In this document: positions 15,636 through 19,802 of the stretch, piece after piece
Numbering within the stretch: position 1 is the first letter of the stretch
How the letters are laid out: each line of letters opens with the position of its first letter
Origin: a virus
Lineage: Duplodnaviria; Caudoviricetes
Length of the DNA stretch: 34,514 bases
Reading direction: 5' to 3' (one strand)
IMG/VR virus record: IMGVR_UViG_3300032047_000058
Span: 1 to 34,514 of that record
The notes under the pieces: model-generated
Database searches by the model: none
Told to the model about the DNA's origin: nothing
Seen by the model: the letters and a program-made list of their open reading frames with translations, nothing else
Position numbers and translations under genes: made by a program

Positions 15636-16839
15636 CATAAATCTACATACAAAGTATATTCCCTTGTTTCAATCTGATAGCAGATACTTTATAATTACAG
15701 GAGGTAGAGGTAGTGGTAAGAGTTTTGGAGCTGCTCTGTTTCTACTGAACCTAACCTATGAGCATGGACATAAGATTCTATTTACTAGATATACTTTAAC
15801 ATCAGCCAACACTTCTATTATTCCTGAGTTCATTGAGAAGATAGACTTGATGGATGTTCATAGTGATTTTAGAATTACTAAGGATGAGATAATAAACTTA
15901 AAGACAAACAGTTCTATAATGTTTAAAGGTATTAGAACCTCATCAGGTAATCAAACTGCAGCTCTTAAATCTTTAAATGGTGTAACTACATTCGTTGTAG
16001 ATGAGGCTGAAGAGCTTTTAGAAGAGGATGTGTTTAACAAGATTGACTTCTCTATCCGTACACAAGGTAAACAAAACAGATGTATCTTAATATTAAATCC
16101 AGCTACAAAAGAGCATTGGATATATCAGAGATTCTTTTTATATAAAAATATCAAAGGGGGTTACAATGGTGTTACAAATGATGTTACATACATTCATACA
16201 ACTTATGAAGACAACAAGAAGAATTTATCCGATTCATTTATTAGTCAGATAATGGATATGAAACGTAGAACTCCTTCTAAGTTTGAGCATATTATTTTAG
16301 GAGGTTGGATGGAAAAAGCTGAAGGAACAATAATTAGAAACTGGAAGCTTGGAGAGTTTGCACAAACAGAATTAACTTGCTATGGGCAGGATTTTGGGTT
16401 CTCTATGGACATGACAACGCTTGTAAAGGTCTCTGTTGACAGAGATGTACGGAGGGTCTATGTAAAAGAGATATTCGGTAAAACAGCACTTTCTACGTCA
16501 GATATAGCATTTATGAATAGGAAGGAATGTGGAGCAGATTTGATAATATGTGATAGTTCTGAACCTAGATTGATAAAAGAATTAAGAAACACAGGATTAA
16601 ACATAAGACCAACCATAAAGAAGAAAGGTAGTATCTTATCAGGTATTGCTTTGATGCAAGACTATGAGATAATAGTAGAGAGAAACTCACACAATATAAT
16701 TAGAGAGTTTAACAATTATGTTTGGCATGAGAGAGGACAGAAACCAATAGACAAGTACAATCACTTTGTAGATGCAATCAGATATTCTTTGCAATATTTA
16801 GTTCAAGGAGTAAATTCTGGAAAATATGTTATTCGATAA
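15625..16839 (+). CDS. terL: Terminase large subunit (PBSX/SPP1-like)
   Basis: GGRGSGKS Walker A, VVDEAEE Walker B, LNP coupling motif, and nuclease motifs GQDFGF, DSSEP and NHFVDAIRY. Confidence 0.95.
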   Translation: MNSNINLHTKYIPLFQSDSRYFIITGGRGSGKSFGAALFLLNLTYEHGHKILFTRYTLTSANTSIIPEFIEKIDLMDVHSDFRITKDEIINLKTNSSIMFKGIRTSSGNQTAALKSLNGVTTFVVDEAEELLEEDVFNKIDFSIRTQGKQNRCILILNPATKEHWIYQRFFLYKNIKGGYNGVTNDVTYIHTTYEDNKKNLSDSFISQIMDMKRRTPSKFEHIILGGWMEKAEGTIIRNWKLGEFAQTELTCYGQDFGFSMDMTTLVKVSVDRDVRRVYVKEIFGKTALSTSDIAFMNRKECGADLIICDSSEPRLIKELRNTGLNIRPTIKKKGSILSGIALMQDYEIIVERNSHNIIREFNNYVWHERGQKPIDKYNHFVDAIRYSLQYLVQGVNSGKYVIR

Positions 16840-16841
16840 TT

Positions 16842-16938
16842 TGTTTAACATGAACCTTTAACATGAAGGGTCGATTGTTTAACATGGAGGTGTTTAACAT
16901 GAGGGCTGTTTAACATGGGGGCTTGTTTAACATGAGGG
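16842..16938 (+). repeat. Six direct copies of (TG)TTTAACATG with short, mostly G-rich linkers
   Basis: TTTAACATG starts at 16844, 16857, 16878, 16893, 16909 and 16926. Five copies are the full TGTTTAACATG. Confidence 0.95.
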
Positions 16939-17125
16939 TAGCGCAAAAAAATTATATCCCCTAAATTTTTATTTATATTCATTCTAAATAACATCTGTTA
17001 AGATTTACACAATTTTAGCCAGAAAAAAAGCCAGTAACAAAATCAATTTTATTTTTGTAGTATCAAATTATTTTTGTATACGTGCGCACACGCTTTTAAT
17101 AGGTGCAAAAAAAATATTATATTTA

Positions 17126-17156
17126 TTTGGTTTATTAACAAAATTGTGTATATTTG
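17126..17156 (+). promoter_or_regulatory. Host-RNAP type early promoter (full consensus)
   Basis: TTTG (17126-17129), 19 nt, TATATTTG (17149-17156). Confidence 0.8.
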
Positions 17157-17184
17157 TATCATTAACCAATTAAAACAAAACAAA

Positions 17185-17313
17185 ATGAAAGATTACACTA
17201 TTTTTAACGGAAGAATGTTAAGCGGAGATGTTAGACAGGAGCTAGAGAAAAAAGACGAAGAGATTAAAAGATTAAGAAAAATTATTGATGAAAATATTAT
17301 ATCAATGTTTTAA
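17185..17313 (+). CDS. 42 aa hypothetical early protein
   Basis: ATG 17185 after an A-rich leader. The track extension overlaps the promoter. Confidence 0.65.
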   Translation: MKDYTIFNGRMLSGDVRQELEKKDEEIKRLRKIIDENIISMF

Positions 17314-17338
17314 GTATTAACCAATAAAAACAAAAAAA

Positions 17339-17749
17339 ATGTATAGTAACATAGAAAAACAATTTAAACTACATGTATTAGAATGCGTTCTTGATTCGCT
17401 TGATGATTACGAAGGCGCAACAGATTTTAACTTTATTACAGATGACGAAATATATTCAATGATTTATTACAGTCGTTGCAATCACTTTATAAATGAATCA
17501 GGTTGTAACGTTTGGGATGTTATCAGCTTCGCAAGTGAATTATATAAAGATATGACAGGCGAAAACATACCGAGCGAAAATATCAATTCGGAATTTGTAT
17601 GTAATTTTATATTCAATCATTATGCATATACTTTGATAAGTGATTTGGAACATAATTTTGATTCATTCGAGGAATTAAACGACATAAAAAAAGAGGTTAA
17701 AGAGTACCTAGAATTATATGAGGACAGATATTTATCATTACCATTTTAA
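17339..17749 (+). CDS. Strongly acidic early protein
   Basis: 136 aa; my count is 28 D/E versus 8 K/R. Confidence 0.75.
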   Translation: MYSNIEKQFKLHVLECVLDSLDDYEGATDFNFITDDEIYSMIYYSRCNHFINESGCNVWDVISFASELYKDMTGENIPSENINSEFVCNFIFNHYAYTLISDLEHNFDSFEELNDIKKEVKEYLELYEDRYLSLPF

Positions 17750-17761
17750 AAACATAAAACA

Positions 17762-17977
17762 ATGAACAAAGAAAAAGAACAAAAAACAATGTATCTATAT
17801 GACACCCACACAATTTGGGCGCAGGATGGAGAATTACATTTAATGAATGAAAATAATTATCTGGTTATTAATATAAGAAATTTATATTTTGACTTAGACC
17901 ATATAATATATTTAACAAAAAAAGAGTTTAACAAACAATTAAAAGAACAAAACAAAAGAATAAAAAAACAATCATGA
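17762..17977 (+). CDS. Hypothetical early protein
   Basis: 71 aa ORF with A-rich leader. Confidence 0.65.
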   Translation: MNKEKEQKTMYLYDTHTIWAQDGELHLMNENNYLVINIRNLYFDLDHIIYLTKKEFNKQLKEQNKRIKKQS

Positions 17978-18264
17978 GAAAAATAACAAAAGAATCTGTA
18001 AAAGCATTTTATAATAATTACAATTATTCAAATAATAATACATTTGTAAATGATAATAAGTTTTATTTGCATCATAATTTAATAGCTGAAAAGAAAAATA
18101 ATAAATTATTTATTTGTAATTGTGGATGGTTCAGTAATACCACAAAAGAAAGGCTTAACGGAATATTAAACCATATCGGACACGCTGGAATATATCAGAA
18201 AAATTTCTGTTGGTTTTTAGATGGTGAGAAGTGGAACGGGAACAGGGTAGAAATAAAACTTTAA
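17974..18264 (+). CDS. Hypothetical phage protein
   Basis: 96 aa with LHHNLIA, GWFSNTTKERLNGIL and IYQKNFCWF; ATGA coupling. Confidence 0.75.
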   Translation: MRKITKESVKAFYNNYNYSNNNTFVNDNKFYLHHNLIAEKKNNKLFICNCGWFSNTTKERLNGILNHIGHAGIYQKNFCWFLDGEKWNGNRVEIKL

Positions 18265-18288
18265 CATTTCTTTAACAAAACTTTAACA
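18259..18288 (+). repeat. Three CTTTAACA direct repeats with exact 11-bp period
   Basis: Copies at 18259, 18270 and 18281, just upstream of a promoter -33 element. Confidence 0.85.
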
Positions 18289-18297
18289 TTTCAATAC

Positions 18298-18327
18298 TTG
18301 ACTTATTAACATTATTGTGTATATTTA
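18298..18327 (+). promoter_or_regulatory. Host-RNAP type promoter
   Basis: TTG (18298-18300), 19 nt, TATATTTA (18320-18327). The spacer shares TTATTAACA...TTGTG with the 17126 promoter. Confidence 0.65.
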
Positions 18328-18364
18328 CATAACAATAATAATTAATAACAATAAAACAATAAAC

Positions 18365-18514
18365 ATGAAAACAATTAACAAACAAGTAAACACATTTAAA
18401 CAATTAGACACATTTGAAAAAGTACAACTAACAATTTTTAGCGTTGTTATGTTCAGCCTTTTATCTGTTGTTGGTCAATGGGCTTTAAATGGTTTCTTTA
18501 CTGCATCATTTTAA
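18365..18514 (+). CDS. 49 aa single-pass membrane protein
   Basis: ATG 18365 after an A-rich leader; hydrophobic LTIFSVVMFSLLSVVGQWAL. Confidence 0.7.
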   Translation: MKTINKQVNTFKQLDTFEKVQLTIFSVVMFSLLSVVGQWALNGFFTASF

Positions 18515-18576
18515 TAAAGTTATACTGAAGAGGATTTAATATCCGAAACGCCTTCGGGCGTCTATAACAACTAAAA
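18509..18576 (+). ncRNA. Type I hammerhead ribozyme
   Basis: Stem I GTTATA(18519-24)/TATAAC(18563-68); core CTGAAGA(18525-31); stem II GGAT-ttaat-ATCC; GAAA(18545-48); stem III CGCC-ttcg-GGCG; GTC cleavage triplet 18560-62; distal stem I TTTTA/TAAAA beyond an internal loop. Confidence 0.95.
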
Positions 18577-18585
18577 CAATTAAAC

Positions 18586-18807
18586 ATGAAAGAAATCACA
18601 GAAATTAAAATGCTACCAACTAACAAAATATGCATTCATTACGGCAAACAAATTGAGGTCTTAACCTTACAAGAATTCAATGATTTAATGAGATATAGAA
18701 TAAGAAAAGCAAACAGAGAAAACGACATCAGAAGCACTCTTTTAATTGTTATTATGTTAATCACTGGTCTTATCTTAGCAATGAAAATAATTCAAATACT
18801 AGGATAA
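18586..18807 (+). CDS. 73 aa protein with C-terminal transmembrane helix
   Basis: TLLIVIMLITGLILAMKIIQILG at the C-terminus. A 23-nt leader separates it from the ribozyme cut site. Confidence 0.7.
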   Translation: MKEITEIKMLPTNKICIHYGKQIEVLTLQEFNDLMRYRIRKANRENDIRSTLLIVIMLITGLILAMKIIQILG

Positions 18808-18995
18808 TGTTAGAAGAGATGAACAAAATAAAAGACATTGAGAAATTAAAAGCATATTACAGAGCCGATTTAATTTATATAGAATGGCTTAAAAGATATG
18901 AAGAATATATATATAAAAGCTATATAATGATTGACGCTGAGGCTTCAGCCTATGCTGACGGAGATAAAGAATATAAAGAAAACTTTAATAATTAA
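18807..18995 (+). CDS. Hypothetical protein
   Basis: 62 aa, TAATG-coupled. Confidence 0.6.
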   Translation: MLEEMNKIKDIEKLKAYYRADLIYIEWLKRYEEYIYKSYIMIDAEASAYADGDKEYKENFNN

Positions 18996-18998
18996 ATA

Positions 18999-19097
18999 AT
19001 GGAAATAACAGATAAAGAAATTGTTGATATATTACATTTATATTACCCTAAGATTTATAATAATATATGCGAACATATACAACAACAGGAGCAATAA
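18999..19097 (+). CDS. 32 aa hypothetical protein (not in ORF track)
   Basis: MEITDKEIVDILHLYYPKIYNNICEHIQQQEQ, between the previous stop and the terminator. Confidence 0.5.
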   Translation: MEITDKEIVDILHLYYPKIYNNICEHIQQQEQ

Positions 19098-19144
19098 AAA
19101 TAATAAAATAGTTTAATTTGTTTTATATTTAGTTAGTCCGAAAG

Positions 19145-19177
19145 AGCCTTAAAACCTTATGTTTTAGGGCTTTTTTT
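19145..19177 (+). terminator. Rho-independent terminator closing the early cluster
   Basis: AGCCTTAAAAC / GTTTTAGGGCT stem followed by a T run. Confidence 0.85.
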
Positions 19178-19479
19178 ATATCCTTTATATATCTACACCT
19201 TTTTTTTAATTGATTGATTTACAGATGAGATATGAGGCTGAGAAATAACAAACAATTTTAAGCTCATTTAAGCATACTTTACACCTCATCAAGTACCTAC
19301 ACACATATAATTAATAAACATCTCTTAAATCGTCTCTAAATAGCCTTAGATTAGACGTTTATAACATACATTTAACGTAAATTGAATATATGGCAGGTGG
19401 AGTTACCCATTCTAATGATTTCATCAAAAACGAATTTATCTAAAACTCATAATCTAAAAATACAAATATAATTGAAAGT

Positions 19480-19713
19480 GTATTGGGAAGGTATTATTCG
19501 CCCACCTATAATAAATGTTATTTTAAATAATATTTGCTAGATATTTGGTTAGCAGTTTACTCGTTGTATGGAATAGTACTAGGGCGATTACGAAAACAAC
19601 AAAGGATTTAGTACTGCCATTCACAAGGAGATTTAGAGTACACGGTCCAACAATCATCCGTATTTATTAGGGTATTGAAGTGTGGCAACTTATGTAGATT
19701 TGCAACTACTTAT
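19480..19713 (-). ncRNA. Candidate structured late non-coding RNA (3' end uncertain)
   Basis: Lies downstream of a minus-strand late promoter. Contains a long interrupted inverted repeat at 19558-19640 and smaller hairpins. Confidence 0.45.
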
Positions 19714-19717
19714 ATAA

Positions 19718-19744
19718 AGATAACGATATTTTTAATTTTTGTTT
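19718..19744 (-). promoter_or_regulatory. Phage late promoter, antisense copy (AAACA-N14-CGTTATCT)
   Basis: The plus strand reads AGATAACG (19718-25) and TGTTT (19740-44), with the same spacing as the sense copies. Confidence 0.7.
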
Positions 19745-19774
19745 TATACTTCCATAAACAACTTATTAACAAGA

Positions 19775-19802
19775 AAACAGAAAGTGTTGATTTTCGTTAT
19801 CA
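19775..19802 (+). promoter_or_regulatory. Phage late promoter copy 2 (AAACA-N15-CGTTATCA)
   Basis: ATG 19807 lies 4 nt after the motif. Confidence 0.8.

Follow-up and report, generated by a model that had tools for sequence, protein, structure and literature searches.

Genetic setting and anatomy of the ribozyme

The window, that is, the whole stretch of 34,514 bases analysed here, was a virus record 92% complete and carried genes for terminase, portal, Erf, RusA, a sigma factor, lysis and tail proteins, all on the + strand. Among cultured relatives its terminase was closest to that of Nonlabens phage P12024L (51%), while blastn of positions 17300-19200 against cultured phages gave no match. 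Shine-Dalgarno (SD)-like words were found for only 3 of the 44 window genes. A Bacteroidota host is likely because of the terminase match, the rarity of SD-like words and the occurrence of sites of the TAnnTTTG type, which is the -7 box of flavobacterial sigma-A.

Behind terL lay a run of small unannotated ORFs, and the ribozyme followed the first gene after the promoter-like site at 18298 (Table 1). Near-identical Bacteroidota-type promoter-like sites headed small-gene groups at 17127-17156, 18298-18327, 17889-17914 and 7550. Since the loose promoter pattern had 29 matches in the window, the 17127 site was not significant by itself, and a sigma-70 promoter scan was uninformative (27 found versus 22 expected). 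From their size, promoters and analogy only, the small genes may be expressed early. The upstream ORF had no PHROG or Pfam match, and the downstream ORFs had no family match at the cut-off. The non-coding interval after terL (16844-16935) contained six TTAACATG-type words at short spacing, which is possibly a packaging or replication signal.

Table 1 Features of the ribozyme unit and its surroundings in the window
Feature	Position	Strand	Remark
Promoter-like site with exact TAnnTTTG box, ahead of small-gene cluster	17127..17156	+	25/30 bases identical to 18298 site
Promoter-like site, one mismatch to TAnnTTTG	18298..18327	+	Likely start of ribozyme unit; putative function
Upstream ORF, 49 aa, one hydrophobic stretch, stop at 18512-14	18365..18514	+	Homologs in relatives
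A2.7, unpaired, before stem I	18518	+	Predicted partner of first loop II base
Stem I 5' strand, 6 bp with 18563-68	18519..18524	+	Compensatory changes at all six pairs (family)
Catalytic core C3-A9 (CUGAAGA)	18525..18531	+
Stem-loop II, 4 bp (18532-35/18541-44), G-C closing, loop UUAAU (18536-40)	18532..18544	+
G12-A14, stem III with UUCG loop, U16, C17	18545..18562	+
Stem I 3' strand and A1.7 (18569), the predicted partner of last loop II base	18563..18569	+	Predicted new 5' end
Leader, A-rich, without SD, like other genes of window phage	18570..18585	+
Three downstream ORFs (73, 62 and 32 aa)	18586..19097	+	Only the first hydrophobic
Intrinsic-terminator-like hairpin closing the unit	19140..19176	+	Sole such site in 16800-19700; 0.7 expected by chance

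A descriptor scan placed a complete type I hammerhead at 18519-18568, with stems I, II and III of 6, 4 and 5 bp. All residues of the consensus, as defined in the portion of the 2011 survey by Perreault et al. considered here (PMC3088659), were present, namely C3 U4 G5 A6 N7 G8 A9, G12 A13 A14 and A15 U16 H17, and the three core-adjacent stems were paired, stem I being open-ended as in type I. GAAA lay at 18545-48, stem III at 18548-52/18557-61, and the GUC triplet ended in C17 at 18562, so the intact core, three stems and UUCG loop claimed in a previous sequence-only reading were all found. By established hammerhead chemistry the cut is predicted after 18562, and the leader from there to the ATG at 18586 was, as had been stated, 23 nt long and A-rich. 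This hammerhead was the only match on both window strands, none of 300 dinucleotide shuffles gave a match even with looser stem lengths, and neither a scan allowing one core mismatch nor a pattern search detected a second or degenerate hammerhead in the window. The Rfam search suggested in the sequence-only reading did not detect it: no match was obtained at gathering score in the window, nor at E<=10 in 16800-19800. The copy did not reach the 34 bits of RF00163 (Hammerhead_1) or the 56.3 bits of RF03152 (RAGATH-1-hammerhead); it has no 5' hairpin, and its stem II is of 4 bp, not one pair.

A compact hammerhead subfamily in phages

Three pattern scans and one protein scan of the IMG/VR collection gave 299 loci. 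Correctly folding type I hammerheads were present in 126 of 136, 23 of 29 and 123 of 134 of these loci, the last being those fetched out of about 920 stretches matching one sub-pattern, and the subfamily comprised 353 distinct viral copies, the window copy included. Because the scans detect intact cores only, decayed copies are undercounted. The search patterns themselves fixed the 13-base length of stem-loop II and, in the seed copies, GGAU or UAA, but left the flanking As and the distal G-C free. Stem I was exactly 6 bp in 329 of the 353 copies, preceded by A in 99% and followed by A in 93%, and the first base of loop II was U in each of the 333 copies whose stem-loop II was 13 bases long. 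An ATG-initiated ORF began within 80 nt behind the ribozyme in 333 of 353 copies, with a median leader of 25 nt; of these 333 leaders, 154 had an SD-like word and the remainder were A-rich. Compensatory changes were found in all three stems, the outcome for which the sequence-only reading had proposed examining related phage contigs.

Cultured carriers were Pelagibacter phages HTVC022P, HTVC131P and Jormungand, Methylophilales phage MEP301 and Cellulophaga phage phi19:3; no hammerhead was found in Nonlabens phage P12024L. Thus, the layout is kept across hosts, since these carriers infect Pelagibacter, Methylophilales and Cellulophaga, with leaders either SD-like or A-rich. Only 12 of 120 pattern matches in cellular genomes folded as hammerheads, mostly on short MAG contigs, the rest being chance matches. 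Seven multi-copy loci compared with Rfam had only sub-threshold matches (best 31.5 bits to RF00163 and 42 bits to RF03152). A literature search, mostly without subscription papers, returned no description of this subfamily or of pelagiphage hammerheads; members may already sit among the 860 environmental type I entries of the Perreault data set, which, in the portion considered, also has type I hammerheads in phages LUZ24 and PaP3 (PMC3088659).

Arrays of 9 to 10 hammerheads, about one per gene and with mostly identical stem I, occurred at L142:2385-5830, L153:528-4593, L175 and L202, L142 and L153 having 10 copies each in about 5 kb. Stem III carried inserts of up to about 100 nt in many loci (L007, L030, L105, L142:2719), some of them conserved between phages. 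In three T7-like pelagiphages (L540:2303, L543:2664 and L662:3011) the hammerhead lay just upstream of a gene-poor gap before MarR and integrase genes. No annotated gene started close behind it in these three phages, and a non-coding RNA may there take its 5' end from the hammerhead.

Outside the helices, the strongest covariation in 268 dereplicated copies was that of the last loop II base with position 1.7, the pair being U:A in 223, G:A in 21, A:U in 16, G:C in 2 and other in 6. Watson-Crick pairs numbered 241, versus 207 +/- 2.5 after permutation (0 of 10,000 permutations as high), counts that are inflated by shared ancestry, 5 of the 16 A:U cases coming from one contig. The first loop II base and position 2.7 were U:A in 267 of 268 copies and A:U in one, which had both positions swapped. 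The G:A cases and the shared ancestry weaken the proposed loop II contact; even so, the partner of loop II is likely the unpaired A2.7 and A1.7 (U18536-A18518 and U18540-A18569 in the window) and not a distal internal loop. The sequence-only reading had continued stem I past an internal loop into a distal UUUUA/UAAAA helix. The helix can be drawn, but the computed energy then rises from -13.1 to -11.5 kcal/mol (a cost of 1.6), and the longest flank helix averaged 3.46 bp in 349 copies against 3.46 after permutation (96 of 200 permutations as high); it was thus supported neither as a family trait nor as the loop I partner. The stem I duplex was computed at -2.2 kcal/mol in the window (family median -4.1) and stem III at -6.2 kcal/mol (family median -10.1).

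Twelve relative loci were obtained through the downstream protein, one of which ended early, leaving 11 informative. At the slot behind the same upstream gene, six of these had a hammerhead, three had nothing and two had another structured RNA; the ribozyme is therefore optional, as 5 of 11 informative relatives are without it. A further search for holders of the upstream gene returned only 6 contigs, all already in the set. Behind the ribozyme, three carrier relatives had a different gene that did not look hydrophobic, and the same extra genes also occurred without the ribozyme. Across the subfamily, 270 downstream ORFs (median 77.5 aa) fell into 229 clusters, and the downstream gene differed in 74 of 94 pairs sharing the upstream gene. 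The placement between two small membrane-protein genes proposed from the window was locally consistent with the flanking ORFs, both having one hydrophobic stretch (19-residue Kyte-Doolittle 1.79 and 2.64), but did not extend to the family: the element is not tied to membrane proteins, since hydrophobic ORFs made up 28 of the 270 downstream against 70 of 718 background ORFs, and since the relatives carry other genes behind it.

The RNA replacing the hammerhead in two relatives (L159, 3627-3692, and L163) was an uncatalogued element of about 65 nt without a match in Rfam. A loose pattern gave mostly chance matches; the stricter one used for the count gave 23 distinct members, 18 with an ATG close behind. 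It was also seen in L544-L558, and in the marine phage contigs it stood behind a stop codon and ahead of an A-rich leader. Alignment of 13 members revealed two-sided changes in two helices, at 4 of 8 pairs in one and at 2 of 4 in the other; a crossing helix of four pairs, a predicted pseudoknot, never varied, partly because it was in the search pattern. Identity with the pistol ribozyme (purine at 32, G40/G42, stem P3 and a six-pair pseudoknot) was not supported on hand-mapping as a circular permutation, position 32 being mostly C and P3 absent. At L635:601-650 this RNA was nested within a hammerhead's stem III; it may therefore be cargo and not a self-cleaving element. A damaged-core hammerhead lay directly behind it at L557:2543-2600 and in L565.

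In 57 independent multi-copy loci, copies from one genome resembled each other more in stem I than in stem II (excess 0.59 versus 0.23; bootstrap difference 0.19-0.54, and 0.19-0.60 in 22 loci with stem II unconstrained), the contrast with stem III being weaker (0.01-0.33, spanning zero in one subset). Stem I strands of neighbouring copies cross-paired fully in 78 of 129 cases, compared with 16% between genomes. No neighbour-specific matching was detected (60 of 101 versus 57.8 permuted). Each of 104 multi-copy loci, among which some overlap, had all its copies on one strand. The matching fits recombination between copies or circularisation, and recent duplication could also explain it.

Predicted cleavage of the small-gene transcript and alternative roles

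From its sequence, the window RNA is predicted with high confidence to self-cleave. Reads of two low-share RNA runs gave no coverage of 18323-19300, a result that is neutral as to activity. In the portion of the Perreault survey considered, three prophage hammerhead clusters cleaved in vitro and one in E. coli, and the cutting of long transcripts into gene-length mRNAs was proposed (PMC3088659). The segmentation idea, with in-vitro and in-vivo cleavage of prophage clusters, was thus published in 2011, and the sequence-only reading overstated its novelty. The LUZ24 type I hammerhead, which belongs to a different subfamily with a 5-bp stem I and a long stem II, was located at 2415-2485 (L660), between gp5 and gp6. 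The sections consulted of an ONT-cappable-seq study of LUZ24 list 26 RNA 3' ends, including T004 at 2480 without a predicted terminator (PMC10914365), and this position is exactly C17 of the hammerhead. T004 was annotated by its authors as a termination site, and the main text, as far as it was covered here, makes no mention of a ribozyme (PMC10914365). This end supports, without proving, cleavage in the cell, because a cleaved end must be healed before poly(A) tailing and because exonucleases trimming back to the hairpin could stop at the same place. Together with the compensatory changes in three stems, it favours the protein-free mRNA processing that had been proposed from the window.

The job of the ribozyme is probably constitutive, unregulated cutting of the small-gene transcript after C18562. 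Transcription would start at the 18298 promoter-like site (or that of 17127) and end at the 19140 hairpin, and folding would be aided by the two predicted loop II contacts. Owing to the type I topology, the whole ribozyme would stay on the upstream RNA, whose 3' end would be formed by the stem III hairpin and a cyclic phosphate; the downstream RNA would carry a 5'-OH 23 bases before the next start codon, its first part being the weak stem I strand followed by the open leader. The weak stem I, with stem III the stronger, would let the products separate quickly. As the cut always lies behind the upstream stop, no stop-less message would arise and both pieces would be translatable. The stability and the translation of each piece would then depend on its own new ends and not on its neighbours, a feature that would suit a region of often-swapped genes. 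The intact core and stems, not reproduced in any shuffle, and one layout over 353 copies with compensatory changes argue for constitutive cutting. Against it, the LUZ24 parallel concerns another subfamily and was read after poly(A) tailing, relatives without the ribozyme exist at the slot, and the three pelagiphages have no annotated gene close behind theirs. Stem I is also marginal in nearest-neighbour folding (in-context pair probability 0.37 in the window, family median 0.18), and an AU-rich RiboJ variant was non-functional in cells according to the part of the RiboJ report considered (PMC7536230). The same part models RiboJ-cut mRNA as more stable (PMC7536230), whereas glmS-cleaved mRNA is degraded, not stabilised, so that the effect of a 5'-OH end on RNA stability in the window host could be of either sign.

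Coupling to translation, in which ribosomes ending the upstream gene, or pairing of its last codons with the start codon, would gate cutting or initiation, is quite unlikely as the general role. Of 255 copies, 205 had the upstream stop within -16 to +14 of C3, and 101 had it inside the ribozyme itself; these counts cover copies with at least 400 nt of upstream DNA, and 8 copies were without an upstream ORF. Positions 18506-15 of the window can pair with 18580-89 and cover the AUG, the computed opening cost falling from 4.2 to 0.5 kcal/mol after the cut, and masking of the upstream ORF raised the stem I probability from 0.37 to 0.78. However, the stop positions were scattered over this range, the spacing of -13 in the window recurring in only 8 of 255 copies, which speaks against the tuning by terminating ribosomes suggested in the sequence-only reading. 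All frames of the ribozyme contain stop codons, and ORFs running into it would simply terminate there. Flank-leader pairing was no better than permuted (-3.89 versus -4.00 kcal/mol, 306 copies), the gain in access on cutting had a median of 0.9 kcal/mol and reached at least 2 in only 47 of 275 copies, and an irreversible cut would be hard for passing ribosomes to hold off. Ribosome coupling is thus possible in the window and is not a family trait.

Three further roles were weighed. The ribozyme and leader may act mainly as a recombination point for gene shuffling, cutting serving only to standardise the 5' end of the arriving gene. A crossover inside two copies joins the 5' strand of one stem I to the 3' strand of another and would thereby favour copies with matching stem I in one genome, as is consistent with the cross-pairing of neighbouring copies, with the many downstream clusters and the differing genes behind one upstream gene, and with the promoter cassettes of T4-type phages as precedent, in the part of that report considered (PMC2839356). 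Yet the window has a single copy, the swapped genes of its relatives come and go without the ribozyme at a shared A-rich leader, and recent duplication could also make copies alike, the stem III contrast being the weaker one. This role is unlikely as the main one, though it is compatible with constitutive cutting and not exclusive of it. Stem I cross-pairing within genomes, together with a median copy spacing of 498 nt, equal to one or two genes, would also suit circular gene-length RNAs, in which the unit between two cuts, with 5'-OH and cyclic phosphate, refolds a ribozyme through the matching stem I and ligates. Such circles are impossible for the single copy of the window, the matching was neither neighbour- nor direction-specific (60 versus 59 of 101), weak stem I favours release, and circular or spliced products were sought by Perreault et al. 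and none were found, as stated in the portion considered (PMC3088659); they are highly improbable. A nearly neutral passenger, active and unimportant in a variable region, would be expected to be dispensable; the ribozyme is missing from 5 of 11 informative relatives that have the same flanking genes and from P12024L, whose terminase is the closest among cultured relatives. Selection is implied by the compensatory changes and intact cores of the carrier relatives and by one orientation and position over hundreds of copies, although decayed copies are undercounted and one was seen (L557/L565); the passenger reading is very unlikely. It is likewise unlikely, taken as a whole, that unrelated phages share a ribozyme-plus-leader gene head whose stem I is kept cross-pairing for recombination or circles and that the second RNA is also a new self-cleaving or end-protecting RNA.

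Relation to known systems

RF00163 and RF03152 have the same type I topology and core as the subfamily, whose compared members (those of the seven multi-copy loci and the window copy) all lay below their gathering values (34 and 56.3). The RAGATH-1 model has a 5' hairpin and a one-pair stem II, both missing in the subfamily. RNase III cutting of T7 early RNA, to which the window element had been likened, also occurs before the ribosome-binding region and leaves a 3' hairpin on the upstream piece; it depends on a host protein and yields a 5' phosphate, unlike the hammerhead. RiboJ insulators, as described in the part of the report considered, likewise cut just before the ribosome-binding region and standardise the 5' end, but they are engineered and add a hairpin to the downstream piece, unlike the window element (PMC7536230). 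PeSL cassettes of T4-type phages (Arbiol et al. 2010), from the portion considered, are similar as repeated small cassettes heading variable non-essential genes; they consist of a promoter and a terminator and were shown to recombine, whereas here the cassette is a ribozyme with a leader and its recombination is presumed (PMC2839356).

At the level of structure, the loop motif U-Nm-Y-N / R-Nm-A (Perreault Fig. S5) was absent from the subfamily. Fast natural hammerheads have a contact of U1.7 with a loop II A, that is, the A:U form (O'Rourke et al., in the part of PMC11875169 considered). Minimal fast hammerheads described there resemble what is predicted for the subfamily, namely one contact that links position 1.7, next to a short stem I, with the final base of loop II (PMC11875169). 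The contact predicted for the subfamily is mostly reversed (A1.7 with a loop U), and the subfamily also has a second, near-invariant U:A at 2.7 and a five-base loop. It is a very small natural hammerhead subfamily missed by Rfam, and is useful for annotation and for compact RNA tools.

What self-cleaving ribozymes do near phage genes is a question that the literature itself calls open; natural pairs with and without the ribozyme at one slot, cultured carriers and the overlooked LUZ24 3' end at the cut site make it testable without answering it. The closest parallel lies in the clusters of Perreault et al., in which, within the portion considered, hammerheads also separate non-constant, small genes of phages and are found on the coding strand (PMC3088659). 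Those clusters have several copies per genome, as do many relatives, whereas the window record has one, and the subfamily differs further in being without a pseudoknot and in having loop II U..U and unpaired As that end the open stem I. The window element itself is ordinary and its layout has been known in kind since 2011, while the new lead is that the copies in one genome appear to keep cross-pairing stem I strands.
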